NCBI GenBank assembly: GCA_964187785.1
Contig: OZ076409.1
Coordinates: 47,370,001 to 47,430,000 of the forward strand
Length of the DNA: 60,000 nucleotides
From: Amphiscolops sp. MND2022
Lineage: Eukaryota
Reading direction: 5' to 3'
Shown: positions 2,913-45,074 of the stretch, piece by piece
Numbering within the stretch: the stretch's first letter is position 1
How the letters are laid out: every line of letters starts with the position of its first letter
The notes under the pieces: model-generated
Told to the model about the DNA's origin: nothing
Database searches by the model: none
The model's input: only the letters and a program-made list of their open reading frames with translations
Position numbers and translations under genes: made by a program

Positions 2913-4730
2913 TGTCTTAAGCACAAGTGTTCATAGGTCCGTCATTAGGACGATCACGGATTGGCTCACTTCTTGAGTTTCCTCTGGATTTCTCATTGCA
3001 GAACCTCTCGGAGTTCACCTCCGGTCTCTCTGACGGAACGTCCCATCAATCTTGTGTCAAACGACCTGATCCGGAATTAAGGGCAGTTTCAACCTGAGGC
3101 AACATTTGGTTACTGATTGGATCACTAATCGCCCTTTGGATCTGGGTGTTAAGACTACTCATCATTTCATCTAATTCTCTTGATAACCTCGAGTTCAACT
3201 CACTCGACAGTCTGTTGATCTCTGCACTAGAATTACCACTAGCCGAATTTTGGCCATAATCAGCATCAATACCAGTACCGACATTTCTTGAATCTAAGAA
3301 CCTGTTCTCATCAATGTTTTCACATTCATCGCCCAAGGTGCTTTCTGACCTTCCCGCATGGTTGCTGTTAAGGCTTTCGTCTCTTTCGTTTCTATTAAAA
3401 TGATTTTATCCAAGCCTGATGTCTAGATTTTCTACATCTGATAGAATCTCAATTCCTCAAGATTTCTAGCTTTCTTTTGCTTTCTTGTAGTAGGCATTTG
3501 AAGAGAACTCGAGATAAAACAGTGAATTGAACTTAGCTCGAAAACAATATTTTAAGGTTAAACTGAATAGTAAGCAGAATAAACAAATTGTGTCCTCCCA
3601 AGGAAAATAGCGGATAAATATATTCTCTCGGGAATGACATTCGTTCTCAATGTAAATAACAAGTTCCTTAAAAGGCACATGACAACATTCCTGGTGAGCA
3701 AATACCACACTTATCACCGTTGGGGTGTGACTGCTTCAGGAATGTGACCACATCATCTTCAAGTACACAAAATATGCGCTGCTGGTACGTGCCGCCACGT
3801 GAACGCTAAAGCACAGGACTGTGTACAATAAATACGATTACATGTAAAGTGCAACACGGAAGTAAGCCCAATTCGGCCAATTATTTTAATTTTGAATTTC
3901 CATTGGGGTATGGGCAAACTATTGAGAACAGCACGAAATAGACGTTCTGAATCATTTACGAGCCGTTCAATGCATTCAAAGGTTTAAGACAAGATTTACA
4001 TCAATAAAAAAAAGTATATTGCGTTTTACATGTTCGAGTCAAAATAGGCCAATGGCCTTACAAAAAACAATTGACATTAAAATTTGGTCAAATGGACCTA
4101 ACAGGCAATTATTCATCATAACTGCATACTAGCACTGATCAGAAAATTACCTATCATAAAAGGCACAGGTACGTAATTTTTGGTCAAGTACATGGGCGGT
4201 TGATATCCTACTTTCATTTTGAACAAAGTGGCCGGAATCGGCCGTTTGACTAAAGTATCAATTGTAAGTGGCAATATTACGGCAACTGGCTTTACTCGGC
4301 TATTATTGATAACTTGAAATAGAAAAAACTAATGCTGCAATATGATTGGCTAGGACGACGTGCTCAAGTGACGCTTTCGGATTAGCACTGTACATCACTT
4401 GAACACCTTGAGCACTTCCTATACTGCCTCACAGTTGCTTCTAATTTGTATTGCATTTAGCTCAGCAATTTTACATTGTACTAGCTCACATCATTCAATC
4501 GCCTGATTTGGATATTTCCAAATCGTATTGTTTTAACAGACTAAGAACAATTCCAATAATGCATAAAACATTGTATGGGTAAATAAAAATAGGAGAAAGA
4601 GCAAGCAAATATGGGTTTTCTAAAAGTTCGGTAGTTTGTATTTAAAAGGTAGGCAAAGTGCCTGGTATTATTTCTCGTCCGATTGCGGAAGTAGTCACGG
4701 TCGTACCATCACAGGCGGCAGCCTGCGACA
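2913..4730 (-). mobile_element. 3' LTR (~1.8 kb) of element B with a decayed Gag N-terminus (~2913-3497)
   Basis: TGTC...GACA ends; minus-strand start TGTCGCAGGCTGCCGCCTGTGA is nearly identical to element C; ILSDVENLDIRLG and SRELDEMMSSLNTQIQRAIS match element C Gag. Confidence 0.75.
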
Positions 4731-5417
4731 CTGCAGGTGCTACCAAAAGAAGAGAACCAGCATTCGGGCTTCCCTTCTAAGTCTAGTTATTTGTTCTGAC
4801 TCTCCTCTGGGCGTAGATCTTGACATGTACCAGTCCACCTTCTCCTTTTTGATCACGTCCACGGAACGGCCACAGACCATACATCCCGTGTAGCGTACCT
4901 CACTAATGTTTTGGTAGGGCCTTGTATTCTGAATGTGGTACGAAGCATGGAAACCATCTTTGACAGGCTGGACTAGTGGAGTGTCTTGACTTGGCCCCCT
5001 CTCGTGATCTGGTGGCGGCATCGGCGATTCTAGGACTGGCAAAATTGTGTTGCAACGCTCTGTCCATGTCCTTTCAGTCCTCTTCAGAGAGGCGTAACAC
5101 ATCTCGCGATCGAAATATTTGTAATCCAATTTCGGCTTCACGTCTGCGTGTATTTGAGATGTGCTCGGGCCCGCAACCATTTCGTCTTCTTTGGGGTCTT
5201 CAGTAGTCGTAATTCTACCGCCAATGAGCATGGGACTAGCGGTAACTTCTTTTTCTATGCGTGCTATCAGTTGCTCTGTATCGGTAGAACAATCTGTCTC
5301 CCAGTCCTCTGAGAGCTCATCTTCACTGCTTGATATATAAATTACGGAATTATCAGACTCATCTGAGTTAGACTCATCCAAGTCGAATAGCTTTCTTGAG
5401 AGATTTAATTTCTCCAT
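4642..5417 (-). pseudogene. Sense accessory ORF of element B, frameshifted near 4770, ending inside the LTR
   Basis: Shares P.L.GGR..T, SPM.PP....GPSQ, C.VCG.S, AGS.....VSQAAACDG and PG.LP with the ORF at 31001-31821. Confidence 0.8.
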
Positions 5418-8400
5418 TATAAATTTCTTGACGATTTTTGAAACTAATAAAGCAGCTGATTGGCAATGTGATTTGAGACAAAATGAATTTATCAAAATTA
5501 CAACTCGGGCCTATTTAGGATTTTTCCTGGAGTTTCAGTTTGGCGGTAGAAACTTCGGTTGATAGTCCTGATCTGTCGTAAATTTTTCCGAATGGAATTT
5601 TTCAGCGGTAACAAGTCTTGGAATTCTTGAATGTAACCCCCCCTCTCACCTTCTCAAGTGGATCGGAGAAGAGTCTTTGAGTTGTTTACAACAAATATCT
5701 CCATATCAAGTGGGTAATTAGCAGCGTGCTTGCGTGTTTTTAACGACATGCGCCGCTAGGTTTCTTCCAAAATAGCTTCAGTCAATCAAAGATGAGCTTC
5801 GATAAAATGAAAAATGAATAGTAAATTGGCGGAAATAATAAATCTAGATAATTCAAAATGGCGAAACTTTAACTAAAATAATAGGGGTAACGGAACAAAA
5901 CGACAAAACGAAATAAGGTAAACGGCCATAATCGGCTCCTAACTAAAAATGTTGTAAGTATTGAAGAAATCCCCTGTACATTTCGCTGGCAGACTTCATG
6001 TACATTTTAAATAGGTAAATAGCCATATAATAATAGCCTGGTAAAATCTTCAGCCACCATTTTTTCGATTGTTTTTCCAAATCAATACCCTTTACAATTT
6101 GCATCCGTTATATTTGTATTGTTCATCGTCTGGATTTTTTCAACCACTCCTATCTTCCTTTGCCTCCAAGCCTTGTTGTCAACCATATCCGTTTCTGGAT
6201 TCCCCAGTTTTTCTCCATTCTCAGCCCAACTCGGCCATTGTCTCAAACACCATCAAACTTTGATCAGCCAACTGAGGACTGTTTCCTGGAAGATTACCTT
6301 ACTGCAATAGAATGTCTTCTAACTCAGGTTGGTTCACGTTTCATATTTTGAACTAGTTTAACTTGATCAGAGCTAACCTTTATTCATGAGGCGCTTCCCT
6401 CTTCCATCTAAGAACGTGTGAAAACACGTCTTTCAAATTCAAAAGTCACTTCCGGAAGATTTCTAATGCGGCAAATGGATGCGTTTCGAGGAAGCTTAAC
6501 GCCAAGTTTTTTTTTCTTTTCGTTTAGAGAACCAAAGCTCCGAGGACGACGCAGCAACAAGTCCACTAGTAACCTCTCCACCTGTTTCCACGGACACGGC
6601 TATTCTGGATCCACAGAATGTTGCTGACCTTCTTAACTCTCCCCTGAGTGCTGACAGTGAACAGGACATTAGCGCTTATGCCGAAGCGAAAATTCAAAGT
6701 ATAGAGTCTGATGGGCTTTCTTCCACTGTGGGACTAATTGCCCAGGCTGCTGAAGCGGGATCAGAAGCCCAAGCCAAAGAAATGGCCAGTCAAGGACTTT
6801 CACCAGTAGTGATGCTGCGAACAAGTACCTCTATTCCAACGACAGACGAGTGGGCGGCAAGTTCCAGAATCTGGTTTACAAATTGTTGAGACTTCAGCAT
6901 CACAATTGCCAGAACTTCTACCCGCACCACGCCATAATCCAGTAGGGACACCTGCGTTGGCAGCCCAGACTGATGATGATAATGACTCATCTGTGTATGA
7001 AGTCCCTGCTCTGCCTAGTAACTACCCGAAAATACGTTTCCTCACCGATCTGAGTGAGACCGAAAAAACTGTTGAGGAGGCAAGCACCACTGGCCACCTT
7101 CAGTTATATGGCAACATTCCTAACACGTCAGGGTCAGGAACCGAGGCTGGGAAAGAACCAACTGCGCAAGTTGCTGGTCCCCCGCACCAGGGATACACAG
7201 CCACAACTTCTAGAGGGATAGAAGACAACCTCCCTGAGTTGCCTGGAAATCCAGGGCAATCCTTAAGACTTGTTTCGACGAGGCCCGAGCTTTCAAGCTG
7301 CCCCCAGGACATTCAACAGTGGCTTTTACTGAGCCACAAGTATACCACTTATTGCGGGTCTTCACAGACGAAACGCTCCGAATGTCTAACGATACCATGG
7401 AGAGAATGGTTCTTCATGCAGTGAGGGGCAAGGCTGCAACAGCTCCCTCCAGGACAGCACACTTCTACAAGAGCTAGGGCTTCCACCCCTTTTAGAAAAC
7501 TCTCCAGTGATTCCAGTGAAGTAGAAAGAGGAGGCGATTCGAATGCTGACACTGCACTGAAGACAGGACCCAAAGAAGACTCTCACTAGCACTCTAGTCC
7601 CGGGACCTCTGCCAGGCAAGTTGAGGAAAGTGCCCTAGAGACTGATCCTAGCAGCCAAGACATAACCCTTTCTGAAGTGAGAGAACAAGTGCTAGACACT
7701 ACATCCAAGAGACAGAGCATTTCCAAGAAACCAGGTCGGCCCAAGCGACAACAACAGCGTGGAGTTCCAATGCGTGACGAATTCTTGCGAAGATTGGATG
7801 GACAAGGATCTTTTATTTCTGGACCTGCAGACCCAATCCACAATCCACACATGGTTTGGTGTCATGTGTGTAAGGAGAATTTTTCGATTAAGACCAAGGG
7901 CCCCTTCGAATTTCTTCGGCATCACCGCAGTGAAAAACATCTGAGACGTGACCAGCGATGGAGGTACGAACACCTCAGGAGTCTTGACCCGGTTACTGGT
8001 AAGGTACAACACCGAGTTAGAGGCCGAAACGGGAAGCTACTGACAAAAATTGAGCTGGCAAAGGAATTACCAAAATTCATCCACGTTGAACTAGTAGATT
8101 TGGATGAGCGTTTCCCTTTCTACGACGACTTTGTCAGAGACCGAACAACTCCCCACATTACGCCTGAGTCACGAGCTCGAACCCAACTAAATATAGTCTC
8201 TGACTTCCTTCAGACTCAAGGAGACTTGTGCAAACTCCGAAACTTATGCGCACGGATCAGTTCCTTCACCGATCACCAGGCTGCTCTTTGTGATTTCGAC
8301 TGGGGTGAAGAACGATTGTCTGTAAGTATATCCCCAACTGAACCTTTCGTTCAAGTCATCTGATAAGATCATCAACACTTCGTTCTCATTTCAGGCCATA

Positions 8401-11157
8401 TTGCAGCACCTCTTCAATTGCGCGATGAGCGATATCGCTGAGCATGTTGCCTCGGAACAGTGTTTCGGACTTGAATGTGAGGACAAGGGGGCCAGCAGGT
8501 TCATATCCCTGCTCTTTTGGAAGAAGTCGGAACTGTGCCGAGTCCTGGTTTGTCGCAGTTGGTTGCCCTCCACTGAGTTAACTGGAGAGTTGATGTCCCT
8601 AGCTCGACTGCTGTCTGTGAATCTGACTAAAATTGATATAGTAGCCTGTTCCGGGTGTCCAGTCGACTTCGTGCACACGATCGATGAGATGCCAAGCTTT
8701 ACCCGTTCGGTCTAGAGCTGCTTTCGCTTCGAAAAACTAGACTTGCAGCGTTTGATGCACAAAACGAGCTACAGTGTCTTTGGGAACATTGACTTTTTCT
8801 CTGTACTGAGCGGCTTAGCGATTTCTCTAGAAAGATCGCTCACGGGAGTCTGGGTGCAAGGAAGCCCTGAACTCACTCGAGTAACTTAGCTTTACTTTAT
8901 TAGTAGTAGATAATACTCAGGGCAAGGTTAAGGTTAGTTCTCCTAATACATGCCGAACTCGGGACTTTCTCTTTTAGGCAGTAATCAGCTGCAGACTGGA
9001 TTTGCAGACTTTGCCGACACTGTGCAAAGAACTCATTGAAGAGTGGAAATCCTTGGTGGCATACTTGAATCTTCATGCCCCACAACAGCAGGGGCAAGGC
9101 GTACGGAGCAGGGTGAGTAAATGAATCTATCTGAACTTGATCCGCACCTGGGTTCTGGAGTTTTAGGATTTGAGTTGAAAATGCTTTAAGGTTCTAGGAA
9201 AATAACTTCGCGTTTTGTTCCTGGTACAGAGTTTCGATTGGTCACTTATTTGTGATGAGTTTTTCCTGGTCAAACTGGAAATCTTCTACTGGAAAATTTA
9301 GTCAATGACTGTTAGTATTCCACTAAGTGTTCCGGGTATCATTCCAGTTCCGGAGTGGGTCATCATTACAGAGGGGTAACCGGCAACGAAAATACAGATG
9401 GAAAGCGATGGACATGTATGAATGTATGGGCCAAAAATGCACTTTCGTTTCGCAGCCAAAACTGTTGCCTATTGATTTCCGAGGCAGCACAAGCTAGGTA
9501 TTGAGTTTTTTTGCAAGAGCGATGGCTTTACTTGCCCATGAATTATCGTTGATGATTGTAAATCGGGCAAGTAATTCCATCGCATTCGCAATGAAACTCA
9601 ATATTTAGATAGATCTGCCACTCGCTTCGGCCAATTCAATACATTGCTTTGACATGGAAGTGTCTCAATATTTATCTACACATGCAGAGTTTCAGTGTTC
9701 ATTTTTTGGTTCATCAAATTAATTCGGCAATATTTTTTGAACAAGCTTTATCAGTTCAATTTATATTTTCCCAGTTTTTTAGGGGAGAAATTTAAATTGG
9801 CAATGACGAAAATCTTCGTTCCGAAGCCAATCAATGCAGGATTATTACCTTGATGATATTTGGTTTACTATATTTTAATACTGTTTAATACTTATTTTTT
9901 CCTTTCTTTTGTATATAATGGCAATTATGATCGCGCAATTATGATAATGACAAATAATTTGATTTAATATGATGTGTATGTATATTATGATGTGTTAGTA
10001 TGTAGGTTTGATGTATTTTATTTTTTGGAAATTATTAATTGAATCAGTATCTTGTGAATCGTTTTTGTTTTGGGGCAAAAGAACAGTATAGTTGATATAT
10101 AATATGAGTTTAGGTTTTTTGACAACATAATGCCTTTAAACAATTGAGTCAAACAAAAAGTAATGAGGATTTTCTCATTAAATTGTTCAGAAAGACAAGC
10201 CCGAAGAAAGTTCTTATCATGCCATTTTAATCTTCTTGTAACCTCCTGATCTTCTTATGGTTGATATATAATATGTGTTTAAGAATATTCAATCATAACA
10301 AAAGAGCTGTTCAATATTTGTACAATTACTACAAAAAAACTTTATTCAATTGCTCACCTTGATTGATATAAGATATGTTTAAGTTTAGTGAATCAATAAC
10401 AAAAAAATTGTTTGATAGTTGTACAATTACTACAAAAACAACTTTATTAAACTATTTACCTTATCAGTCATCAAATCGAACAGTTTTGTCAGACAGAGTG
10501 TTGCTGGATACAAGGTAGAGTGATGAAAAATATGGAGGTTTGATAATCATTATTCAAATTTATTTCGGAGAAAAAAGTACCTGGGAATTGTTTAATAAAC
10601 TTCTAATATTCGGCAAATTCTTGTCTTTAGTTGAATAGGCATATCTCGGACATTTTTTGATATGTATTCAGATTTTATATCAAATTAAAAGGCCACACTT
10701 GGTGAGAAACGAATGGACAGATTATGTTCAACGAAGAGTTGAGTTCACTCATGCGTTTCCGAGATTTTCAGTTATGAACAACAAAACTCGCCCATGCATT
10801 CCCGAGTTTTTACCCAACATTTTTCAAGTTTTGGAAGGCCTTGCAGGTTGAGCAGGCCCAGCGGGTTGAGAAGAACGTCATCATGAAGACGGCTGGTACA
10901 GTGAAGGCAGACTTCGTCCGAGATGGGCAATCATACCAGCAGTTCTTAGTGAGTGAAGTCCTCAGGCGGGCTGGTTTGAGCTCCAAGCTTGTCAAGGGAT
11001 TGGCCGCCTTTATCCTATTGTAATGCTCAAGAGACCCACAGACGTTGCCGTGCGGCATTTTGACATGTTGTATAGCACCTTTCTCCTTAGGTCTTGGGTC
11101 ACCACTACCAATGAATCCGCCTGCCGAGATGAGTATTTGGGACTTGTCGACCATCTC

Positions 11158-11640: not shown

Positions 11641-11900
11641 GACCATCTCCACTCCAGTTACCCTTCTTTGTTCGAGGTTACCAACAGTTCCAAAGATCTG
11701 ATCGATTTTCTCATCAACCTGGAGTTTATGCAGTCTCATCAGCATTTGTTGCATTTATTCAAGCTGTGTTGCCCATGTGCCACCTCCATTAGCCCTAGTA
11801 ATCCTGCAGTTACGATGAGGTCAATCAACACTTCGGGACATCACAGCAGATTCACTGATGTTATACTGCCATGTCAGAGTTACCTCTCGTCCGTCCCTGG

Positions 11901-29391: not shown

Positions 29392-29462
29392 TGGAAATTA
29401 AAGTACAGGCATGTTGCTGAGCGTGTATTGTGCTGAGAAATGATGAATTTCATGTGTGTTTG

Positions 29463-31092
29463 TGTCGTGATTTTGTTCACTATTCACAGAGTCTACTGAA
29501 CTCTGTCTCGACGTTAGTCTATTGTTTTCCTGCATAAAACACTTTCTAGGGCGATTTTCCCATGATTTCTGAGCGTTTTCAACTTCGGAGTTCCATTGTA
29601 GCCCACTGGACCTTCGGTCTCCCGTGGTGAAATTAGTTGATTTTGAACTATCATGTAGCCCAATGGACCCTCGGTCCACCATGGTGTGATTTACTCTGTC
29701 CTGCATTTCCAGCGTATTTTGGATGGAAGGAAGTATTTTCTCAGTGATTGCGCTACTAATAGCGTCTTGTATTTGAATATTCAAGCTACTTTTGATCTCA
29801 TTTAGTTTCCTTGACATTTGATTAGAAATCTCTTCATTAATCATTCTAGTGGTCTCAATAGTAATTTCACTATTCTCCCTGTTATTTGTATTGAGTAAAG
29901 ACCTAAAGTCCTCCCCAATTACATTCGAACTTTGCTGTGGTCTATTGGACCCTGAGTCCAAATTTATTCCATTTTCACTAATATCATTTTCCTCATCGTC
30001 CCTGGAGTAGCTTCCAAGCATTATATCTACACTTTCCACGTCGGACATCATGTCCAATTGTCTAGAGCGTCGCTCTTTAGCCTTTTGCTTCCTAGTTGAA
30101 GGCATCGAAGAATCAATTTAATCAACAATGAATTGATTAAAAAGTTATTCAAACAGATTTCAACAAGTAAAAAGACGAAACAATTTATGAAAGAGTTGTG
30201 AACGTAGTGTCAGGTATCGCAAATTATTATTAAATCATCCTCGGGACTTGGCGTCCCGGCTATTTATATTTTCCACTGCATGACAAGCACAATTTATCTG
30301 GTCATTGTTCTAAATTTAGCCCCTAAGTGGGCTAAAAACAGCCTTGAAGGAGATGACATCACTATTACCACACTTTCAAGTAACTATAAATAGCAACAGT
30401 TCATATCAAAGCAAAAGGTGTGGGGGTTTCAAAGTTTTACCAGAGGGCCTTTCAGCATCAAAGAATATCTACATGTGCATCACAATATCATCATGATTGC
30501 ATGGAGGATATAATAAACAGCTAATCGCGTTAATAATACCAAGGCGGACTTAAAGTCCGCATAGCTACAGCACAGTGACGTCATAGTCATAGTATATGAA
30601 TAACACCATGGCGGACTCAAGGTCCGTTTGACTACAGTAATATTATACTGCCTTCTGATTGGCTATGAGTGGTATAGACAGCGCGTACAATCTAGCAAAG
30701 GAAACAAACATTTGAACTCGTTTCCTTTGCTACGTACAATTGCTAATTACCAATTTTACAGCGTTTGAATTTATTCAATTTGCCATTGCTTTTACATTGA
30801 TTAACTAACAGTCCTAGGTAATACAAACAATAAACAGATAAAAATTATACTCCAAAATATGGTTAATATCCGTATAAGAGTGAGTTCAAGCTTGAAACAT
30901 TTATTGTAGGCAAATCGACTGACGGTCCTCTATGGTGTAATTTGCATCTTCTTTGTCATACGTCGTATTGGTACTTCTTAAGTCACTCAGGCCTTCTTGA
31001 TTAGATTGGTAGTACTCCTGGGGGCGGATTTGACACGTTATTTCCCTCTGGGATTTGATACAGAATGCCGTCACAGGCGGCAGCCTGTGACA
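29463..31092 (-). repeat. 3' LTR of element C (1630 bp), including a truncated Gag copy (ORF 29398-30105)
   Basis: Direct repeat of 43444-45074; TGTC...GACA ends. Confidence 0.97.
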
Positions 31093-31821
31093 CTCCCCCT
31101 GGGATTAAAATTACACTACCTGCACTCATACCTGCTAAGAAAGCATTTCGTCGTCTAATACGTTGTGCGTAGGTTTCTCCAGGGATGTGGGTTTGTTCCA
31201 AGTATACAAGTGTGATCTCCTCTTGTATAGTTGCGAACGATTTGCCACACACTGTACAATGGCCCCGTTGGATGTAATTCGGCTCTCCACAAGACCCACC
31301 TGTGCTAATTGCCAGTCCAGTGATGTGTTGATTGGTGATCCACGAATCAACTTGTTCTGGCCCTTCAGCCCACTGGTCATTTCTAATATTCTGCGATGGC
31401 CCTTGATCAACCAATGGGGGTGACATCGGTGAATATGGTATTGGCTCCAATTGGCCATACGGTGATTCGGGTCATTTGCACGGTAAGATTGAGTAGGGCG
31501 GCTTCCAACAAGCCAGTCAACCAGGCTGTCTGACGGGTCGAATTTTGAGTCTAACGATCCCGACGGGCCACAAAAATATTGTATCTCGTCATCAGTGTGA
31601 GCGTCGTGATCAAAAGTCATTGCTCTACCTCCGGCTAATTGCGGTGGATAGACAGGGGTCTCCCTGTAACAGGCGATTACTTCTATATCGCTGTCCGCAT
31701 CCTGATCTTGTTCTATAGCCGTCACGGAAGCTGAGTCAATTTCCATATCCTCTTCTGAGGATTCGTAGAGTGCACTGACCAAGGGTCTGATAAATTCTTC
31801 AACGTCGAATTGTAGAGACAT
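31001..31821 (-). pseudogene. Sense accessory ORF of element C (~273 aa; one frameshift near 31455), ending inside U3
   Basis: Joining ORFs 31135-31920 and 31001-31450 gives a protein colinear with 4642-5417. Confidence 0.8.
31093..31100 (-). promoter_or_regulatory. Short polypurine tract
   Basis: AGGGGGAG directly before the 3' LTR TGTCACA. Confidence 0.7.
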
Positions 31822-32968
31822 TTCGCTATGGAATCGTGATAAGAAGATTTTCTTAGCAATGATTGCAATGTCAACTTGATTGTTGCTTGAAAAATGGGTA
31901 GAATGGCTTTTTCTGGCCAAGTGGACCTTGGGTCTTTCTTGATTTTGCGGGAAGCCTTTTCGCGGGAAATCATAGTAGATAGTTTCCCCCGAATTTTCCT
32001 AATTCTCCTTTTAAGTAAATCTATGATATTAGGTAAACTTTTATAAATAGGTTGTAACACCTCTTAATAGGTTTTTGAGGGTCACTCAGTTTATTTGTTC
32101 AGTAGCTAGTGAGTAGCTGATCATCAATGAAAGTGTTGACTAGTTATAATTGCTGGTAAACAATAACACCATCAAAGACCACCGGTCTGTGTGACTACAC
32201 TCAATGTTCTGACCAATGAGACAACAGCGATAAATAAATGAATGAAGCCTCCAAGAAAATAAGTAATGGTGACGGAATTGAATAATTGATGCTCTAATAG
32301 GTGAAATGAAGGGTTTAGATTGCGAAATGAAAACTAACTTCACGCATGTCACTGGCAGGTAACAAACATGAAATATTAGAATTGGATAATGATAGTAGTG
32401 ATTAATATTACGTATTTTCAGCATGAGCCACGACCTCCAGGCTAAATAATCTTTCTCAATCATGTATTCGTTTTAAGGTAGTTTAAAGTAAAGTCTCAAA
32501 GTCTGGAGTAAATCGGATAAATGGTGGCTAAATAATTATATAACAGTGTTTGTAGTACTGTTCGCTTCCTTCTTCTATCACATCAGCCACAGTTTCACTT
32601 TGCCTATTCGCGTCTCATTAAAAGACAATCTTGTGCTAATCAACTGGTCTTGCTCTTGCACCTGACTCTATTGGATTATCCACGATCGCCCTCCGGTCCA
32701 AACGGCCACAGTCTGAGGTAAACTCAATTGGAGTCCCAGGAGCCTAACTGTTGCAGAATTTAGCTGTAGATCCAGTTTTGACGACGTCAACACACGAATT
32801 CTGTCTTCCAAATGGAAATGACATCAGGTTGGTTCTTTTAATTTAAATCTTCAGCATAAACTTGATCAAGGTCTAGCTTTGATTTGTGACACTTCCTCCA
32901 TCGTGAAATGATTTCATATTAAATCATTGATTCTATCTTACTTCCGGAAGGTTTTCAAACGCGGCAAA

Positions 32969-35900
32969 ATGGATTCATATTCTGGAAGTGAACCGTGCAA
33001 ATTCATATCTTTCCATTTAGGTAAAGAGAACATCGGCCAACCCCAACAAACGTCTTGTGAGCCTGAACCAATAACTATTCCCGAACAATTGGCCAGTAAT
33101 GAAACCCTAGCAATCGAGTCACCCAGACTTAGCATAAGTCCAGCCACAGAAGTGGACCAAGAGGTCACGCAGCCACAACACTCTCCAGGACCTTCAATGA
33201 TCTCCCGACTTTTTGGCACCGACAGTAGTGGGTCAAACGAGAGTTGAGTTGCGACACGTACATTACTTGCAAGCTTAACCAGTTAGCTGAGAAGATTGCC
33301 TTGGAAACGTCCGAAGTTACTGGGTTTATTCAGAAAGAAAGCATCAGTGAAGCTATAGCACTCACTCCTAGCGTCCAACATTACGAGTATTTCCAACTTG
33401 ATAGGAGTTCTTGCCCCCAAGTCACCTTTCTGGATTCTCCAAAAGAAGCTGGAACCAGCGGTTGTCCGGAACCAGAAGCGTCAGCAGCAAAGAAGCCGAG
33501 AATGACACCGCCTCAGAATAGCTCGACTGGGACCGAAATGCCAGCTGATCCGCCTGCTGCCGTCACCGCTACTAGGGGGCAAACTGCCTCTGACAGTGAG
33601 GGCGAACAAATTGAATTTGAACCTCCTTTCGCCAATTATAGCAGTTCAGAGATTTGCCACCTTAGTGATCATGAGTCAGACCGATATGTCGGGTCAACAT
33701 TAGCTGAGGCGTTAAACCCGCCTGCTCAGTTTTCTCTGTTGGTTGCTAGCGATCAGTCTAGTGACGTTGCTACAGTCAAGACTCCCGAAGAGCCTAAAGT
33801 CCGCCCCTTAGGTGGAAGTAGCAGAGCCCTGATTAAAGAATACTTTGGCAATAATGAACCTGAAAGACTCCCACCAGGCCATCCCGTTATTGCCTTCACA
33901 GAGGGACAATTGGGCAGTGTCCTTAGAGTCGTTGCTGATGAAACTGCTCGGGCATCGTACGATATGCTTGAAAACTTATAGTACAGTGCTAGTCGCCTCT
34001 CTTTGTCAACTAAGGCAGGTGCTGACTCAGGCAAGGGCAGAATTTCTTCCAGACAATGATCTTCAGTCGACTCCTCACGTAGTCGGCGGGCTAGTTCAAT
34101 TACCGACAAAGGCAGCGACACCAGTGGGGTACTAAGGAGTGACGACAATTTTAGTAGCATCGGCTATTCATTTGAGCACTCTGAACCCGAGCACATAGCT
34201 GCTGCACCTCGGCCAACTCAGCCCTCCTCTAGCCGTAATGACCCTGGGTCCCCTATGGTCACTTTCAGTGCTGATAGTCCAGGAATTCAAACTCTGGCTG
34301 AGTTGAAGAAAGAGGCGGTACACGACCGACAGCAAAAGACCAGGAATGAGAAGGGACGCTACATAGCCTCTTCAAAAGGTACTCCCAGAGCTAAGCGGGG
34401 TGTGTCCAGATCCTGCAAGATAATGAAGGAAGCCTATTTTAAAGGCATGGAATGGACACGAACTTTCATCTCGGGACCAGTCGACCCCAAGTGGAACAAG
34501 TATAAATTTTATTGCCAGATTTGCAAGGCAAATTTATCTATCTACTCAAAAGGGGCCCGAGAAATTCTCAGACACCATTCGACAGAGAAACATCTACCCA
34601 AGGATCAACGTTGGAGATATGAATATCTTTACAAAGTTGACCCTGTAACCAAGGCGCGTTACCCTCAAGTCCGCGGGAAAGACGGCAAGTTTTTATCTCC
34701 TTACCAACTTGCTCTCGAGTTGCCCAAGTTTAAAGATGTCGAGCTGGTTGACATAGGTGAGAAGTTGCCCTTTTATGAAGAAGTTATGTCGGGAGCAGAC
34801 CATATGTCCTCCAGTTCAGAGAGCCGGGACGAATTCAGATTTCCGTATTGTGTCGATTTCTTCCCCGGTATGGCGACATTGAGTTACTTCGTCACTTCTG
34901 GCGAGACGTTGGCGTGATCGTAAATCACCAGTCCCTTTCACGGACTTCAACTGGACCAAGGAACGGCTCACCGTAAGTATGCACTTTGGCTACTCTAAGT
35001 GTCTTAACAGCCATTCATTTGATTTGTTTCAATCCTGTTCTCCTTTTGATTTGCTCGAGTAGACTTAAGGTCCGCCAGCCTACAACACAGTCCTTCATTG
35101 GCTGCTTTGTTTTACAGCTCATATTTCACCATATGTTCCTTGAGCTCGTAAAAGATATTGGCCACCACGTGGTTTCAACGGGAGAGTATGGGCTCGAATT
35201 CGCGAATGATGGGGCCTTTCTTCTTGTGTTCATCCGATTCTGGCATGAAGACCAACTTTGTCGAGTTTTCTTGAAGAGGACCGGAAGGACCCAAGGCCAG
35301 AACCCATCTGAGCTCACTCTCGTGGCGCACGTGATGGGTGCTCTCTCCACTGAACCACACATTGTCAGTGTTACCGGGAGCAAGGTCCAGACAGTACAAC
35401 AACTCGATTATAGTTGCTATAGCAACTACGCAGTCCAGAGTCCCCCTCGTTTTGAAGAGCTTCAGCTGAGGGCGTTAATGCACAAGAAGAGCTCTAGTGT
35501 GTTTGGCGAGATCGACTTCTTCGGCGTCCTACAATACTTGGTGGTCTCACTTGGGCCAAGCCTCGAACTGGACTGGGTACTGCTCTCACCTGAATTGTCC
35601 AAGGTAAGCATCATTTCCCTTGTCCTGCAATTCCTTAGTGGGGAGAGACGATGTATATACGCACACACACACATACATATACATTCACATCATTTTCTAG
35701 GCAATTCGGACGTGCCAGCTTGAGATGACTGGATTATCCCCATTGTGCCAAGAGTTACTCAAGCAATGGCCAAAGGTGACAGCCTACCTCAGCGAACACA
35801 CTGTTTCCCAACAAATGCAGGATGTGAGAAACCTTTTTACTAATTCCTTTTACTTTATTCTTGGTTATAAGTTGCTTTAAGAATTTCCCAATTCTGTGGT

Positions 35901-37242
35901 CCAATGGACGTTCGGTCTCGTGTGGCTTCTGATCTTGTAAACGTTGATTGCATCATGTTGGCCGCTACGAGTTCTTAATCATGATGATTTTCCTTTGTTT
36001 TATGGCGATTTCGTGTTATTTCAGTCCCAAGGTCTCGAATGGTCTCTGTTGTATGATCCTCTCTTCCCATCGCGACTAGAGGTCTTTCAGCGGTTGGTTC
36101 GGGACTACACTTCTAGTTTTACTCTAAATTTAAAGCAAAGGCGAGACAGAGGCTTCCATGTGTTCCGGGAACTCATCCAGTTCCTTTTCAAATTGGGCCG
36201 ACGCTGCATCCGACCAGCTAATTTACCCATTGAGAGTGATATGCTGAGCATTTTGTGTCTGCCGATACCAGACGTCAAGGCCTTGAGTATCAGCGGTTTC
36301 CTCTCAAGATCAAAATTAGAGACCAGACTCGAAACGGCTTGTAAAGTCCAAGCAGAGGCTGAGAAAGGAGAACGCAAGAATGAAGGATTGAAGCTGGAAG
36401 AGGTCGCCTCTGAAATCAAAGAAGAGTTCGGACGGAGTGCCCGTTCCTATGTTAGCTTCCTGTTTAAAGGGACACAGCGGCTCACTCGATTCACCTCCGA
36501 TATAGTCAAAGGTCTAGGATCTTTTGACCTCGCGATAATGCTGGTTGAGCCGCTGGAGAATGCAGCGTATTGCTTCAAGCAGCTCTTCACGAGTTTTCGA
36601 CTCCGCGCATTATTGCAGCCAGAGGAAGAAACAGTTTATACAGAAGAGTATATGTCTTTCCTGGACATACTTCGCCAATCTCACCCGGGCGTGCAACAGC
36701 CGAAGCTTTTGATTGCGGACACCATTGAATTTGTTTGTGGGCAAGATTCCTTCAAGTCCAGGCTGTACCTGCGTCGTATATTTCGGCTAAGTTGTTTGTG
36801 TCTGGATGAACCCCGCATGTCATTCCCTCTGGTGAAGTTTGGTTCTCATCGGACTGACGACCCTCTAAGTCCTATTTTCGATGTTATTGCGCCCATACAA
36901 TCGTATCTTGACAATGTGCCCCAAGGTCTGGATGTCCTCACTAGCGATTCTTCCATAACGCGGTTCGTAGGATTAGAGCAGTCTTTTGGTAATGCCGGGC
37001 TTAGTGATGTGTACAGCCCCTGGGATTCGATCGATCATTTTGGGAGAGTCCAAATTAGAGAAGCTCTAGGTACTAGCAGTTCCGGACAGACGACAACCTC
37101 CAGCGTTGATGGGACTGCTGAGGGCACTGGTTTGAAGCCTTTCGCTGTCCCAAAGTCTTACAAACGCCGCAGTCTTCTACTGACTGGGAAAGAACTGGCG
37201 GATTCCGCTTCACGTCTTGTCGCTAGATGCAGTAAGGATTAA
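32969..37242 (+). pseudogene. Antisense spliced gene for a BED-finger, hAT-transposase-like protein; exons ~32969-34972, 35118-35603, 35701-35823, 36025-37242
   Basis: FYCQIC...RHHSTEKH; three phase-0 GT-AG introns; a few stops and frameshifts (~33240, 33979, ~34058, ~34830-34940). Confidence 0.85.
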
Positions 37243-37406: not shown

Positions 37407-40400
37407 TTAGTATCTGTATTCATCAGTGAAGTTGGGGGTGGGGTTAGGACGAAGGTTATATTTCCCTCCCCTCGGGCTTTCATTTTCTACAATCATATCG
37501 TTTCCATCATCTAATACTTCGGGCACGATAGTATCGCTCCCGCCTGATGATTGTTGGTCATGAAGCCAGTCATTTGTGCTTTCTAAGGGTGTTTTTTCAA
37601 GCGGTACCGGAGTGTCACTTTGGTGTGGCCCGGTGGACCGAAGGTCCACGACGGTGAAAATTTCGCCTGACTGGCTGGTGTTGTCCACACAGCTATTTGG
37701 AGTGTCTGCGGTATCCAGACGCGGAGGATTTGCGGTTTCTGCAGTTGGATCGGGAAAGTCTCCAAAACTAGTTTCCCACGTGATGACGTATAGGTCATCT
37801 TGCGGAATGATAATTTCGTAGTCCGGTTGCAAGTTGCCTTCCGGTTTGTTGTCCTGTAGGGCAGTATTCGGTTCGTATTTGCGCAGTCTAATGCGGTGTA
37901 GGATTTGCGTTTTGTTGGAATTAAGTTTTCTAACTATGTAGTTTTCATTCGGTAAAACCTTTTCTACAATGTAGGCACCTGTCCATCGGTATTCGCGGAA
38001 TGGAATTTTCGATCCTTGGTGGTCGGCAATAGGTTGTAATATGAAACAATAGTCATTTTGTCGCAAAGGGGCCGCTTTGGCCTTTCGATCATAATATTCT
38101 TTGTATTTCAAATAGGATTGCATGATGTTTTTCTTTGTGGAGTCTAGTAATATTTGGGTGCGTCTTTGAAATTCATCTGCGAAGTCTGTAGTCGGAAGGA
38201 CCTTTGGGTTGGGGTTAAGGCCTAATTTGTGATCCAGTATATTGTATGGAATTCTCCCATGGAAAATTCTAGATGAGTCACATCCCAGGGAGGCGTGATA
38301 AGTTGTATTGTAATTCAATACGGCTAACGGCAAGTATTTGTGCCACTGTCGCCTATAGTCCCCTGAGGCCATCTTGAGATTCGTTTTGAGACTAGCGTGA
38401 GTACGCTCTAGTTTACCGATTGTTTGCGGATGTTTTGTAGTTGCTCATTTCAGTTGAATACCTAAAATTTGGGCAATTTCTGCTATCAATTTGGACGTAA
38501 AGGCAGTTCCTTTGTCTGTGATCAAAGTAGTAGGTAAGTAGGTGTGTTTAGTCATTATGTCAATAATGACCTTAGCTGTGTTCGTGGCCGACGCATCGGT
38601 CACTGGGTATGCAAAAAGGTATCTTGAAAAAACGTCCATTGCGGTTATGATGTTTTCGTAGCCACCACTTGGGGGTAGGTTCGGTAATAAATCTATTTGC
38701 AATGCGTCTTCTGGGCCTAAGTCCCATTCGGGCAAATTCAATAATTCTGGTGTTATGGATGAGTTTGGAATTCTCTTGTCTTTAATACAGATTCCGCATC
38801 CCTGAACCCATTTTTTGACGATTTTTGCGATGCCAGGGTAGTTATATTTTTAGCGGATATTTATGAGCATCTCGGATATTCCAGGGTGTTTATTTGCTTT
38901 TCCATGTAGAGATTGGAGTAGTTCTTGGACCAGGTGTTTTGGTAGGAGCACTTGATTGTATTTAACAGCTCCAGTTTCATCAAAATACTGTCTGGTAATG
39001 ATTTCATCCATGACGGACAGTCGGTCCATTTGGCGACAGTAATGTTGGTACCGCGTATCTTGGACTAGAATGGCTTCTGAATAGGCTTCCTTCAATATTT
39101 CGAGGCGCAATTGCTGTAGGATGACATCGTTGTTTTGCTCTACTGCTATAGAGTTCGTATATGAGAGTTTTTGGAGTGTAGAAAGTTTGTACTAATCGCT
39201 TTTGTGTGTATTAAATGAAATGTCTGGTAATTGATTCGCTGGATTATCCCTAGCGTCTTTTTTACGTTGTAAAATTTGTTCTTCTGTATCGTCGTCATCT
39301 TCTGTATAGAAGATTTGTTCCTCTTCCAAGACTACGGCCGATTGGACGTGTAGTTCAATCGGTGTCGTAGGGATATCTTCCCTAATTCGGAGGATTAATT
39401 TCTCTTTTGGCAAGATTTCTAGACGCGACAGATAGTCAGCTGCTGTGTTGTTTTTACCTGGGATATGCGCTATAGTGAAATTGAACTGAATAACATAATC
39501 GCAAGCATTCCATAGTGTTGGCGGAATAATTTTCATCTGAAAAAATTATGTGACGGACTTATTGTCCGTCAATATAATCACCGGTTTTGGGGTTCCCCAA
39601 AAGATATGTCCAAATTCCTTGAAAGCAAAGAAAATTGCTAAGAATTCTTTTGCGTAAATGGACATTTTCAATTGGGTAGGACTAAAGGTCTTGGATCCAT
39701 AGGCTACTGGTGCGAAAGCCTTCCTCGTGGAAGTGTATTTTTCGAGTGAATCATCCTCGATGAGAACTGCGTACCCCGCGGCTGAAAAGCTGGCATCTGT
39801 CATAAGAGCTATTTGCTTGTTCGGTAAGGGCTGTTTGAGTGCCAGTTCACAACATCGATCAAGAGCCTTGTTTATCTCGGTGAATTTTTCCAAGAGGTCC
39901 GGTGTTACCAGGACTTTTTCATCTTTAGTAAGTAGTTTGAAAAACGGTGTTAGTTTTTCTGATAATCTTGGGATGTAGTTTCGGTAATAGTTTAGAAATC
40001 CCAAGTAACGCTGTAGTGCTTTTTTGGACTTCGGAAATTTTGTATTTGCCAGGAAGTTTTGGACACGAGGTCTCTGCGGCTTCACTCCAGGAGGAGTGAT
40101 GGTGCGTCCCAGGAAATCGATTTCCGTTGCTCCAAAGTGACATTTGTGCATGGTAAGTTTCAGACCAGCTCTTTGAATGCATTGGAAAGTGGCCCTCAGA
40201 TTGTTGATGAATTGTTCGGCATCATTGGCAGCGATGCCAATGTCATCAACGTATTGGGCGAAGGTTCTGCTGGCGAAATTGAAAGCAAGCATTTCGATGG
40301 ACCGCTGGTCGGCCATCTGTAGGCAATGATATGCCTGCGAGCAGTCCATATTACAAAATAGCTTTTTCCCGGCCATGTGTTGGGCTGCATCTGTGAGAGT

Positions 40401-42323
40401 ACTCACCGGGTGATTGTTGTTCATATAATCATCTGAAATGAGGTTGTTGATTTTTCTTAAATCGACTAAAAGTCGTAGTTTTCCATTGGGTTTCTTTTGG
40501 GTAAAAATTGGGCTTGCATATTTAGAGAATGGGAGAGTTGTAATGATCCCATAACGGTGTAGTAGTGCCAGCTCCACAAGGATATCCTCTTTGAGATTGA
40601 TTGGGGTTGGCATACTCTGACTATAGGCTGGGGAGTCACCTTTCGGTGTTAATTTGACCTTGAAGTCCTAGTTCATGCCTATGTCAAATCGATGTCTAGC
40701 GAATATGTCGTGAAATTCGACAAGTAAGTCTTCTATGCGAGCTATTTCAGCTGGTTGCTGCATAGAGTCTGTCCAGTCAAAATTAGACAAGAATTGTCGT
40801 CTGGACTCAGTGTCATCTTGAGGGTTAAATTTCTCTAATTCCTGAAGGTTGATTAGTTCTGACAAAATCCTTTTCTGGATGGGTGTGTGATGCTGGGGAT
40901 CCCCAGGGTCTTCTGGTGTTGGGAACCAGTAATTCTCCTTGAAGTCCTCAGGTTTGGTGGATTTGATCAAGCTGCTTGCATAATGAGCAGCATTCTCAGG
41001 GTTAGCCTGTAGTAGGTGCCATGTGGTCACCGGGTCTATAGGTTTAACATATTTCATCTGTTCTGGTGTCAGGACAGTGAAAGTGGCTACTTGTGTGCCC
41101 CTTTTAAGAGTGTAGGGACTGTCAGTAAAATTGTTCAGGTGGACGGATACTTGACCATTGGTCAAGGTGACTAGAGCAGCACAAAAGGCTATATCGCCAT
41201 CATCAGTGATGTTGCTCGGTTGAAGGATCGCAGTAACTGTAGTGTCCTCGTACAGTTGTGACGCCATTAGGACCGGGTGTCGGTCATTAGGTGGGATGGT
41301 TACAACCTCTCTAATGCAAATGGGTTCCATGACGTTAGTATATTTGTGATCTGCGGTTTTTAATTGCATGGAAAAGAAAGGAAAATTCAAGACTCCTTGT
41401 CTCATGTCCAGGATAGTGTTGTTTCGTTGAAGGAACGAAAGGCCAATCAGAGGACTGGTGAGTTTTTCCATGACTATAAATATTTCGTGAAATTCTATGT
41501 CGCCAACTTCAAATTTAAGTTCGACAGTGCTCCTTGGTGTTTCCAGCTGCCCATTTGCAACCATGATTTGGAAGTTGGGTGCCGGGCCCTCTTTGACAAT
41601 AGACTGAGGGGCTAGTAATCGGATTTTACGTAGATCTGCTTCTGGGATTGCGCTAGATAGAGCTCCCGTGTCTACAAGGCCAGCTAAAATTAGTTCGCCG
41701 AAAACCATTGGAAAATAGAGCATTCGTCGTTTGTATTTGATGCCAAGACTGGTTGTCAGCGGTACATAGTCTGGTTCCCCTGTTCTGGTGACTAGGGTGT
41801 TCCCAAAGCGTGCTGTAACGGCTGTAGCCAGAGAGACCTGTGGTCCCACATGGTGAATTTCGTCGTCTGCAGCCGCGTGGGTCGTTTGATAAGTGAAATA
41901 TGTGCCACGTTGCCATGGATCTACTCGGGCCTTCATAAGGACCATATTCAGGGCTTGGTCAATTTCGAAAGAATCAAGTTCTATGTTGTGGCTTGGTTTA
42001 TTGAAATTACGGTAGAAGTATAGATGATGTGGATTGTAGCAATTAGAGTCCCAATAGGGGTCAAAACCATAATCAGGATCAAAGTAGTAGGGGTTATAGT
42101 CATCAATAAGGGATATAAGTCGTTTAGTAGTAGTATCGTTTTGTAGTCTGGTGGACATAAGGTCCAAAGTGGTTGGAGGAGTCTTCATCTGCTGCTGCCA
42201 GTCAGCTGATGATGTTTCTTTAAGGTATGTATAGTATTCAGTATAATATATGTTTGAAGGGTCAGATATTATGTATTGTCGGACACGGAGTTTTTCATTA
42301 AATTGGAGTCGTGGCAAATCTAG
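37407..42323 (-). pseudogene. pol: Pol polyprotein (protease, dUTPase-like region, RT, RNase H, integrase) with stops, frameshifts and an RT deletion
   Basis: LVDTGA; LRLLVDLRKIN, YVDD; TDAS, KEFLAI, TDNK; H-H-C-C, QIDL, TDKG, GKLERTH; WTGAY. Confidence 0.97.
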
Positions 42324-44086
42324 TTTTTTGGGTTCTTTAAGATTGATATAGTTTGTTTGTTGTTTGCGTTATTATGGCTGGTGGACGTATCGGTAGTGGT
42401 GGTGTCCTCCAGTTTAAGGTTTTTGGGCTTGAGGTGGGCTCCAGCGCCTTTCCAACATCGTTCGGCCGGGTGGTTCGTTTTGTCGCAAGTTGGACATTTT
42501 GGATATTCTTTCTTGGTATCCTGCCCGTCATTGCGTCGTTGTTCCTCCTTTCTTTTGAGTTTTCGGCAGTCGTCTTTGACATGTCCCGGTTTCTTGCAAT
42601 AGTTGCAGGTTATGTTGGGATCGATGCCAGAAGAAAGAAGGCCAGTTCCCGGTCGTGTTGCTGTAGGGGCAGTGGACATTGTTGGTACTAGAATGTCGTC
42701 CCCCTCCCCGAGTCCATTGAGCTCTAGCTCTCGTTCTAAATGGGTGACAATTTCCTCATAAGTAGCGTTTTCAAGTCTAGCCATGTTGACTGAACGTTTC
42801 AATTTCGGCGGCAATTTGGCATATAGGAGGCTGTCGATCATTGCCTGGGCATTCTCGCCAAACGCTTTTTCGGCTCCTTGGTTGAGTTCTTCAAGGAAGT
42901 CTGGCAATTTCATGGTATTTGGGTCAAACACCAATCTGTGCCATTTGTGTTTGGCGGTCGCCTGAGACTCTGGTTTGACATATTTCCGACGAAATACTGC
43001 CAGGATGTCCTCCAAGGTTTGCCTGTTTGCCGTATTTTTGTTACGGAAAGTTTGTAGGGCGTTTTTTCGTAACAATGAGTGAAAATGATTTACTTTCATT
43101 GTTTCAGTCATATCCGGCTGCATTTTAATCATTGTGTGAAAGAGATCTTCGAAAAGTTCAAATATCTCTGATTTTCCGTCAAACGTCAGTGTAGTCGTAC
43201 TGACTGGGCGTACCATCAGCGTTTGTGCGGATGGACGGTTATTCCTGCCGACTAGTACTTCTGGAAGTTGGTTGCTAGGGTCAGAAGGAATAGTAGGTGC
43301 TGTAGTCTCAGGGACTTGGGGGATTGTGTCCTGAGACTCGGGATTGGTTGAATTGTGGCGTTGCAGGGGTTCACGGGATTGCATGGGGCGTCCAGTGAGA
43401 AACTCAGGAACCATATGTGGGGTAGGGTTGGCTCCTGTCACCATGTCGTGATTTTGTTCACTATTCACAGAGTCTACTGAACTCTGTCTCGACGTTAGTC
43501 TATTGTTTTCCTGCATAAAACACTTTCTAGGGCAATTTTCCCATGATTTCTGAGCGTTTTCAACTTCGGAGTTCCATTGTAGCCCACTGGACCTTCGGTC
43601 TCCCGTGGTGAAATTAGTTGATTTTGAACTATCATGTAGCCCAATGGACCCTCGGTCCACCATGGTGTGATTTACTCTGTCCTGCATTTCCAGCGTATTT
43701 TGGATGGAAGGAAGTATTTTCTCAGTGATTGCGCTACTAATAGCGTCTTGTATTTGAATATTCAAGCCACTTTTGATCTCATTTAGTTTCCTTGATATTT
43801 GATTAGAAATCTCTTCTTTAATCATTCTAGTGGTCTCAATAGTAATTTCACTATTCTCCCTGCTATTTGTATTGAGTAAAAACCTAAAGTCCTCCCCAAT
43901 TACGTTCGAACTTTGCTGTGGTCTATTGGACCCTGAGTCCAAATTTATTCCATTTTCACTAATATCATTTTCCTCATCGTCCCTGGAGTAGCTTCCAAGC
44001 ATTATATCAACATTTTCCACGTCGGACATCGTGTCCAATTGTCTAGAGCGTCGCTCTTCAGCCTTTTGCTTCCTAGTTGAAGGCAT
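42320..44086 (-). CDS. gag: Gag (588 aa) with two zinc knuckles
   Basis: Intact ORF; FDGKSE capsid region, CNYCKKPGHVKDDC and CPTCDKTNHPAERC. Confidence 0.95.
   Translation of the reverse strand: MPSTRKQKAEERRSRQLDTMSDVENVDIMLGSYSRDDEENDISENGINLDSGSNRPQQSSNVIGEDFRFLLNTNSRENSEITIETTRMIKEEISNQISRKLNEIKSGLNIQIQDAISSAITEKILPSIQNTLEMQDRVNHTMVDRGSIGLHDSSKSTNFTTGDRRSSGLQWNSEVENAQKSWENCPRKCFMQENNRLTSRQSSVDSVNSEQNHDMVTGANPTPHMVPEFLTGRPMQSREPLQRHNSTNPESQDTIPQVPETTAPTIPSDPSNQLPEVLVGRNNRPSAQTLMVRPVSTTTLTFDGKSEIFELFEDLFHTMIKMQPDMTETMKVNHFHSLLRKNALQTFRNKNTANRQTLEDILAVFRRKYVKPESQATAKHKWHRLVFDPNTMKLPDFLEELNQGAEKAFGENAQAMIDSLLYAKLPPKLKRSVNMARLENATYEEIVTHLERELELNGLGEGDDILVPTMSTAPTATRPGTGLLSSGIDPNITCNYCKKPGHVKDDCRKLKRKEEQRRNDGQDTKKEYPKCPTCDKTNHPAERCWKGAGAHLKPKNLKLEDTTTTDTSTSHNNANNKQTISILKNPKN
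42323..42329 (-). promoter_or_regulatory. -1 ribosomal frameshift heptamer A AAA AAC at the gag-pol junction
   Basis: CCA AAA AAC TAG; a -1 slip reads AAA CTA GAT TTG CCA into the pol frame. Confidence 0.85.
43432..43443 (-). promoter_or_regulatory. Primer-binding site inside the gag ORF (possibly tRNA-Leu)
   Basis: TGGTGACAGGAG right after LTR end CACGACA; tRNA identity is inference. Confidence 0.85.
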
Positions 44087-45074
44087 CGAAGAATCAATTT
44101 AATCAACAGTGAATTGATTAAAAGAAGTTATTCAAACAGATTTCAACAAGTCGAAAAACGAAACAATTTATGAAAGAGTTGTGAACGTAGTGTCAGGTAT
44201 CGCAAATTATTATTAAATCATCCTCGGGACTTGGCGTCCCGGCTATTTATATTTTCCACTGCATGACAAGCACAATTTATCTGGTCATTGTTCTAAATTC
44301 AGCCCCTAAGTGGGCTAAAAACAGCCTTGAAGGAGATGACATCACTATTACCACACTTTCAAGTAACTATAAATAGCAACAGTTCATATCAAAGCAAAAG
44401 GTGTGGGGGTTTCAAAATTTTACCAGAGGGCTTTCAGCATCAAATAATATCTACATGTGCATCACAATATCATCATGATTGCATGGCGGATATAATAAAC
44501 AGCTAATCGCGTTAATAATACCAAAGCGGACTTAAAGTTCGCATAGCTACAGCACAGTGACGTCATAGTCATAGTATATGAATAACACCATGGCGGACTC
44601 AAGGTCCGTTTGACTACAGTAATAATTTACTGCCTTCTGATTGGCTATGAGTGGTATAGACAGCGCGTACAATCTAGCAAAGGAAACAAACATTTGAACT
44701 CGTTTCCTTTGCTACGTACAATTGCTAATTACCAATTTTACAGCGTTTGAATTTATTCAATTTGCCATTGCTATTACATTGATTAACTAACAGTCCTAGG
44801 TAATACAAACACTAAACAGATAAAAATTATACTCCAAAATATGGTTATTATCCGTATAAGAGTGAGTTCAAGCTTGAAACATTTATTGTAGGCAAATCGA
44901 CTGACAGTCCTCTATGGTGTAATTTGCATCTTCTTTGTCATACGTCGTATTGGTACTTCTTAAGTCACTCAGGCCTTCTTGATTAGATTGGTAGTACTCC
45001 TGGGGGCGGATTTGACACGTTATTTCCCTCTGGGATTTGATACAGAATGCCGTCACAGGCGGCAGCCTGTGACA
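43444..45074 (-). repeat. 5' LTR of element C (1631 bp)
   Basis: Direct repeat of 29463-31092; TATA-like ATATAAATA near 44243-44251, upstream of the gag ATG. Confidence 0.97.

Follow-up and report, generated by a model that had tools for sequence, protein, structure and literature searches.

A genuine, unnamed accessory gene family of Ty3/Gypsy-type retrotransposons whose reading frame runs into U3

The window analysed here, 60,000 nucleotides of contig OZ076409.1 from Amphiscolops sp. MND2022, holds a 15.6-kb LTR element on the minus strand (element A), as defined by its LTRs, TSD and pol order. The 3' LTR (29463..31092, minus strand) measures 1630 bp, has the form TG...CA, and has its boundary fixed by the 5' LTR (43444..45074, minus strand; 98.2% identity to the 3' LTR) and by the 5-bp TSD (45075-45079 and 29458-29462). 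None of the 30 differences between the two LTRs falls in the first 168 nt, which is not a significant deficit, about 1.7 being expected in 92 nt. A PBS-like 12-mer lies at 43432..43443 (minus strand), and no tRNA genes were found in the window. The gag gene (42320..44086, minus strand), with Retrotrans_gag and zinc-knuckle matches below cut-off, is followed by pol (37407..42368, minus strand), which encodes protease, RT, RNase H and integrase in that order in a single frame; this order of genes and domains identifies the element as Ty3/Gypsy-type, and its RT matches Ty3 and foamy RT structures. The five in-frame stops in pol mean that this copy is dead, and no env-like gene was found in element A. 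The gag ATG lies within the 5' LTR, at offset 989 of 1630, placing about 214 gag codons inside the LTR (43444-44086; 29463-30105).

Element B (partial; about 2913-9300) is related to A, and its 3' LTR (2913..4730, minus strand), a single LTR whose 5' counterpart lies outside the window, has a boundary inferred from the hairpin described below together with a downstream gag-like start and a CA end. Element C (1-2537, minus strand) has an LTR that starts TGTCACAGCC, a gag that crosses the LTR/PBS junction and the same 12-nt PBS as A. The LTR of A is coding at both ends, and those of B and C are laid out alike. Elsewhere in the window, 188-bp inverted repeats (92.6%) at 11314-12296 flank a fragment (11641-11964) that resembles the 3' portion of the antisense gene treated below. 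The regions 13965-15477 and 54496-55128 contain among them two ORF fragments that resemble C-termini of non-LTR retrotransposons but have no Pfam match, and part of an integrase core (rve, E 6e-5) from a further element on the plus strand. An MNNL exon of a Notch ligand (59040-59513, plus strand; E 4e-11) probably belongs to a host Delta/Jagged gene and speaks for an animal host.

Element A carries two accessory genes, arranged head to head. The first (32969..37242, plus strand) is antisense to the element, encodes a BED-like zinc finger, is predicted to be spliced through a GT-AG intron at about 34973-35117, and is broken. Its counterpart in element B (6475..9286, plus strand) lies head to head in the same manner, with its predicted intron in the matching position (about 8322-8394). 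Since the genomic RNA is of opposite sense, an intron in this gene would be retained through retrotransposition. The antisense gene has 93 homologues of 500-808 aa and gave a weak, CGGBP1-like Atlas lead (0.75); one stretch of it presumably resembles hAT transposases. The spacer between the two genes spans 1147 bp in A (31822..32968) and 1057 bp in B.

The second accessory gene runs in the sense direction, 5.6 kb behind pol and past the antisense gene. The sequence-only reading had described it as one open reading frame (31001..31821), but an intact ORF was rejected at this position, since two frames are joined there by a frameshift: the N-terminal acidic region and the GGR motif belong to frame a (31135-31821, minus strand; 228 aa), the CxxC pair and the junction peptide to frame b (31001-31471, minus strand). 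Four intact relatives align with frame a up to residue 127-128 and with frame b beyond, which places the frameshift, a short deletion adjoining the conserved Cys125, at 31441..31453 (minus strand). The 5' half (frame a, about codons 1-127; 31441..31821, minus strand) is acidic, predicted to be disordered and 88% identical to residues 1-127 of an intact homologue, P0126; it contains an SSEED stretch, DSDIEVI (31675-31695) and PQLAGGRAMT. The 3' half (frame b; 31001..31453, minus strand) contains YSPMSPP, the conserved His (31325-31327), the CxxC (31247-31258), two predicted helices, the junction peptide and PGVLPI-stop. All of the motifs noted earlier (acidic N-terminus, P.L.GGR..T and CxxC) are thus present, though split over two frames. 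The stop codon at 31001-31003 does lie 92 bp within the LTR, whose edge is at 31092, and the peptide IPGG-VSQAAACDG spans that boundary as had been described, but its designation as a PPT/LTR junction suits only A, with its 8 purines.

In element B the copy of this gene (4642..5417, minus strand) consists of a main ORF (4740-5417) broken near 4765-4775. It does contain VAPA|VSQAAACDG across the LTR start at 4730, as claimed for a homologue that behaves like A, but the junction peptide is out of frame with the main ORF. The frameshift had thus been overlooked in both window copies, and the earlier ORF reading holds for the family but not for these two members of it. The GGR motif, PQLAGGRAMT or PMLIGGRITT in the window copies, is lineage-restricted and occurs in 5 of the 16 representatives introduced below.

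When the element B ORF was used as query, 180 homologues were found among 297 candidates; the matches listed stand for 1594 member sequences, and 58 of the best 120 of the 180 matches, which were those listed, are full-length. The N-terminal 120 residues of the element A product yielded 43 homologues among 68 candidates, 8 of them full-length. A profile of family copies, a check proposed with the original description and here built from 58 sequences, gave 520 matches at E<=0.001 among 1.84 billion 50%-identity representatives (best 150 of the 520 listed), so that homologues extend far beyond chance. Among the matches listed, 106 of 372 proteins pass a full-length filter (240-300 aa, CxxCG, and the junction motif 26-34 residues before the end), and they form 16 groups less than 60% identical or 13 groups less than 50% identical, with a median identity of 31%. 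The ORF is accordingly conserved in intact copies, with 106 full-length proteins in 13 lineages. The 16 representatives compared below are one set of the <60%-identity groups, drawn from the full-length proteins among the matches listed. Where a source was shown for a homologue it was ENA; the sole relative on a metagenome contig (L001, JGI) provides a third DNA copy of the gene, and no relatives were found in viral contigs or in prokaryote genomes. Young lineages mostly keep the frame open: 13 of the 15 listed members of a 93-member cluster are exactly 262 aa long, and 13 of 15 in an 18-member cluster are 279 aa, while in the cluster nearest to element A (22 members) only 3 of the 15 listed are 276 aa long.

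Conservation across the 16 representatives is not confined to the LTR terminal nucleotides: 50 positions are conserved in at least 12 of the 16 lineages, and most of them lie elsewhere. From the N-terminus, the shared features are an SS-acidic stretch near residue 21, I-x-x-C-x-x-L-x-P followed by [ST]PxSPP (residues 122-139), His169, C192-x-x-C195-G, a two-helix region with Y210, E219, R228, A230 and G234, and finally the junction peptide followed by P-G-[TV]-L-P. C192, C195, G196, E219, A230 and G234 are found in 16/16 representatives, and C125, H169, P135, P138, Y210, P271 and P275 in 15/16. The motif [ST]Px[SW]P occurs in 15 of the 16 lineages. In the lineage of element A it reads YSPMSPP (P0126 residues 133-139; window 31410-31435, minus strand), which resembles the RNA polymerase II CTD heptad; only [ST]PxSP is retained in the others. 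Between A, B and L001, the codon for the terminal Leu differs in every copy, as does that for the terminal Pro, which argues that the tail past the hairpin is selected as protein. Protein-level conservation extends to CxxCG, one His, SPxSPP and the closing G[TV]LP.

The first LTR codons behave differently. Nucleotides 2-23 of the LTR (31070..31091, minus strand) form an inverted repeat with a 9-bp stem and a 4-nt loop, and their reverse complement translates to the same SQAAACD peptide. The hairpin folds in all three DNA copies (z -6.3 in element A, -4.6 and -5.1 in the others; 0 of 200 shuffles each), while at the LTR start of element C it did not rise above shuffles (z 0.16); Rfam gave no match in 29400-33200. 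In pairwise comparison of the three copies A, B and L001, the three pairs being non-independent, 20 of 24 conserved residues in the first 8 LTR codons use the same codon, against 50 of 118 elsewhere (Fisher p = 0.0003). Since the peptide is read from both strands and its codons are nearly frozen, the VSQAAACD motif, including its Cys (C253), is largely an imprint of the nucleotide hairpin. Likewise, all 184 proteins have V, L or M (N-T-G codons) and never I at the junction, as expected if T-G is fixed, and this rule could stem from the hairpin alone. The frame nevertheless continues past it: among the matches listed, 159 of 184 junction-spanning proteins end 28-31 codons beyond the junction, a fixed stop that bears out the earlier statement that the LTR terminus is also coding. 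Codons and predicted folding together indicate that the LTR start is dual-coding.

A peptide shaped by a hairpin, together with frameshifts in both window copies, would also suit a non-functional frame that merely arises from nucleotide constraints acting at the end of the LTR. We consider this very unlikely, given that residues are conserved along 250 codons while synonymous sites diverge, that length and stop are fixed, and that the frame stays open in most members of young clusters. The accessory gene is, on the contrary, almost certainly a genuine, selected protein-coding gene. Taken with the homologues, it represents a real accessory gene family without a name, in which the U3 overlap is conserved and of which the window copies are broken. 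No description of the protein family or of a translated U3-start hairpin was found in the literature; a repeat-library entry may exist, Repbase and Dfam lying outside the search.

The intact product has 260-280 residues and a negative net charge in 16/16 representatives (-3 to -28). Its description as belonging to no recognisable family held up in Pfam, PDB and fold searches. Pfam gave nothing above cut-off for either half, for element B or for 58 aligned members, the best recurrent sub-threshold match being zf-C2H2_12 (12 of the 58; E 0.015). A PDB sequence search returned a single match at E 0.42, a search of the ESM Atlas gave no usable match for this protein, and Foldseek with a low-confidence model found no match at E<=0.001 in PDB or BFVD. 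The best VIA fold-search result (Z 5.7) covers 42-60 helical residues in a common arrangement; these fold searches exclude no family. Two AlphaFold runs agree on disorder over most of the chain and on two helices right after the CxxC; the helices reach pLDDT of about 90-97, although overall pTM is low (0.24 and 0.37) and 225 of 276 residues fall under pLDDT 50 in the first run. The SPxSPP region was locally confident (73-89) in the second run. The models thus depict a product that is mostly disordered, with a small CxxC-two-helix module. The CxxC pair (C192, C195) could form a zinc site with C125 and H169 as candidate further ligands, but in the zinc check by structure prediction the linkers around these residues are low-confidence in both models.

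A position in the sense orientation between pol and the 3' LTR is shared with env-like accessory ORFs (PMC7264820, PMC5408684), and would be compatible with an Env-like or Sag-like membrane protein. Such a product is most improbable here: a hydropathy scan found no transmembrane segment (maximum 19-residue value 0.74-1.61, with 15/16 below 1.6), the N-termini are acidic and the net charge is negative throughout. Nef carries an N-terminal Gly2 myristoylation site, and this site is present in 0/16 representatives. The analogy with Nef, Bel or Sag drawn in the sequence-only reading therefore applies to the layout of the U3 overlap and fails for Gly2 and the membrane segment, and the accessory gene is probably not a Nef, Sag or Env member.

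Upstream of the hairpin, element A has a run of 8 purines at the PPT position (31093..31100, minus strand), read as Pro-Gly-Gly-Val codons. The run shortens to 5 nt in L001 and to 2 nt in B, where the same hairpin follows, compared with the polypurine tract lengths of 8-49 nt given in PMC7264820. The PPT label would thus not apply to the lineage of element B, in which Pro-Ala-Val codons place at least 3 C in the last seven bases before the LTR. These codons appear in 62 of 106 full-length proteins, all from 1 of 13 lineages, which is over-sampled because B was the query, and in these 62 proteins they would exclude a purine tract next to the LTR start as inferred. This lineage, with clusters of up to 136 members, would represent a recent amplification without a purine tract at that position. 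If true, a PPT-free lineage challenges the PPT requirement, and such elements escape PPT-based annotation tools. The LTR-start hairpin would probably serve plus-strand priming or integrase recognition, and probably compensate for a weak or missing tract.

The weak PPT suggests non-standard priming, and the protein could participate in it as a replication or integration helper whose CxxC-helix module binds element nucleic acid (e.g. the LTR-end palindrome), Gag or integrase and thereby assists priming, nuclear import or target choice. The module, with R227/R228, is the best conserved and best predicted part of the protein, and plant aORF products have been proposed as import aids (PMC7264820). 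Against this, the protein is strongly acidic overall, half of the chain is predicted to be disordered and rich in motifs, and two natural changes in the hairpin keep G-U pairs, which slightly favours a single-strand structure over a protein-bound double-stranded site. We therefore regard a helper role as rather unlikely.

With the gene 5.6 kb behind pol and an antisense gene in between, the sense frame would need its own RNA. Our preferred model is an internal promoter in the spacer, shared by the two accessory genes, and the short RNA would likely start in this 1.1-kb region and end in the 3' LTR. In the LTR of element A, AATAAA follows the stop at distances of 96 and 226 nt; it is absent from the LTR of element B. 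The best motif common to the A and B spacers (E 0.001) adjoins the antisense ATG, where ACTTCCGGAAG and GCGGCAA are conserved directly before the start codon in A (about 32940-32968) and B (6447-6474) as a candidate promoter element, presumably ETS-like. E2F-like sites are not enriched in the spacer (8 vs 5.8 expected). That the conserved spacer motifs adjoin the antisense ATG, and not that of the sense gene, speaks against the shared promoter. A precedent for the internal promoter is Grande gene23, which is driven by a promoter of its own and whose product is nuclear (PMC7264820). Splicing of the sense RNA from the 5' LTR, the usual route for ORF3s (PMC5408684), is the less favoured alternative.

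Among short motifs of the family, the strongest enrichment is that of four hydrophobic core residues with serines and acids behind them, as in VIYISSSEDE of B (5316-5345). A SIM-like core with an S/D/E flank occurs in 12 of 16 lineages, compared with means of 0.5 and 1.8 in shuffles (maximum 6/16), under a pattern that was set after the alignment had been viewed and whose strict rule demands V/I/L at three of the four core positions and a Ser/acid flank. It fits both the SIM definition in PMC12751080, a core with three of four V/I/L and a Ser/acid flank that is linked to CK2, and the CK2-boosted SIM (CIVI-Ser-x-Ser) of the HCMV transactivator IE2 (10.1101/655282). TE accessory proteins that act as host-contact or anti-silencing factors have precedent (PMC13547354). 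Tentatively, and at somewhat less than an even chance, we read the protein as a nuclear SUMO-linked regulator that favours element expression. The acidic product would act in the nucleus as an adaptor, its phospho-SIM-like motif would contact host transcription factors or chromatin that carry SUMO, and this engagement would raise expression of the element. Several observations weigh against this reading. The strict pattern is absent from element A's own lineage (frame a, P0126, P0170 and P0181), which has only a looser acid-then-IEVI motif. The pattern was chosen post hoc, SIMs are loose and acidic disordered stretches serve elsewhere too. A SUMO acceptor motif is found in only 5/16 lineages and a basic cluster in 6/16, and the case draws on models of low pTM, on three DNA copies and on a B boundary placed by inference.

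A protein whose N-terminus is disordered, motif-rich and diverges fast, which has a single CxxC pair and whose free C-terminus is hydrophobic and conserved, might instead be a cytoplasmic defence antagonist or degradation adaptor, Nef- or Vpx-like. By means of short motifs and a zinc clasp, it would bring a restriction factor or small-RNA factor of the host to turnover. The 3' position of the gene is also that of retroviral accessory genes (PMC12789967). The lack of Gly2 and of a membrane segment, and the fact that the top-enriched motif belongs to a type whose SUMO partners are mainly nuclear, make this a doubtful explanation as well, which we rate level with the helper role. Returning to the nuclear SUMO-linked regulator, it can be set in a broader and distinctly speculative picture, which we think improbable as a whole: an animal Gypsy radiation in which both LTR ends are coding, at least one recent lineage is PPT-free and primed by a translated U3-start hairpin, and a divergent retrovirus-like cassette, with a spliced antisense BED-finger gene, encodes a SUMO-reading anti-silencing factor.

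Accessory genes of LTR retrotransposons are common and almost none has a known job; the present family is deep and well aligned and offers testable motifs. It also brings a retrovirus-style overlap of gene and U3 to an env-less animal Gypsy element. As in HIV/SIV nef and MMTV sag (PMC12789967), the frame enters the 3' LTR, so that U3 and the priming region are dual-coding. In contrast to these genes, only 30 of about 275 codons overlap U3 here, the product has no Gly2, membrane segment or sequence match to them, and the host is a Gypsy element without env; MMTV Sag is a type II membrane protein coded entirely in U3, according to the same paper.

For the proposed function the closer likenesses are of another kind, both at the level of the working model and with no homology detected. 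Foamy-virus Bel1/Tas is a DNA-binding transactivator made from an internal promoter, and is comparable as an acidic, motif-rich regulator from an internal promoter, which is putative in our case. HCMV IE2 (10.1101/655282) likewise has a hydrophobic core with CK2-type serines and acids behind it. For the hairpin, the nearest parallel is provided by the Sireviruses, where a conserved stem-loop at the plus-strand priming site, a structure at the PPT/LTR junction, is proposed to guide RNase H (PMC2829016); by analogy, the hairpin may do so here. There the PPT lies in the loop and one arm lies upstream, whereas the present stem begins at nt 2 of U3, lies within U3 over its full length and encodes protein, and the PPT before it is short or missing.

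Extra ORFs behind pol are known from plants, fungi, rotifers and planarians, in a literature that includes PMC7264820, PMC9911081, PMC10085805, PMC5371799, PMC5408684, PMC3601003 and PMC6431247. The comparators among these Ty3/Gypsy aORFs are plant Grande gene23, RIRE2 and Retand, fungal Boty, the rotifer ORF3s and planarian Burro, which likewise have one or more extra ORFs conserved throughout the family, of sense and antisense types and without database match, in a long 3' internal region. In Pfam scans the accessory protein matches no described ORF3 type (Env, GDSL, DEDDy, BIR or SMC). What distinguishes the present family from these aORFs is that its sense gene extends past the PPT position into U3 and forms a head-to-head pair with a predicted spliced antisense gene.
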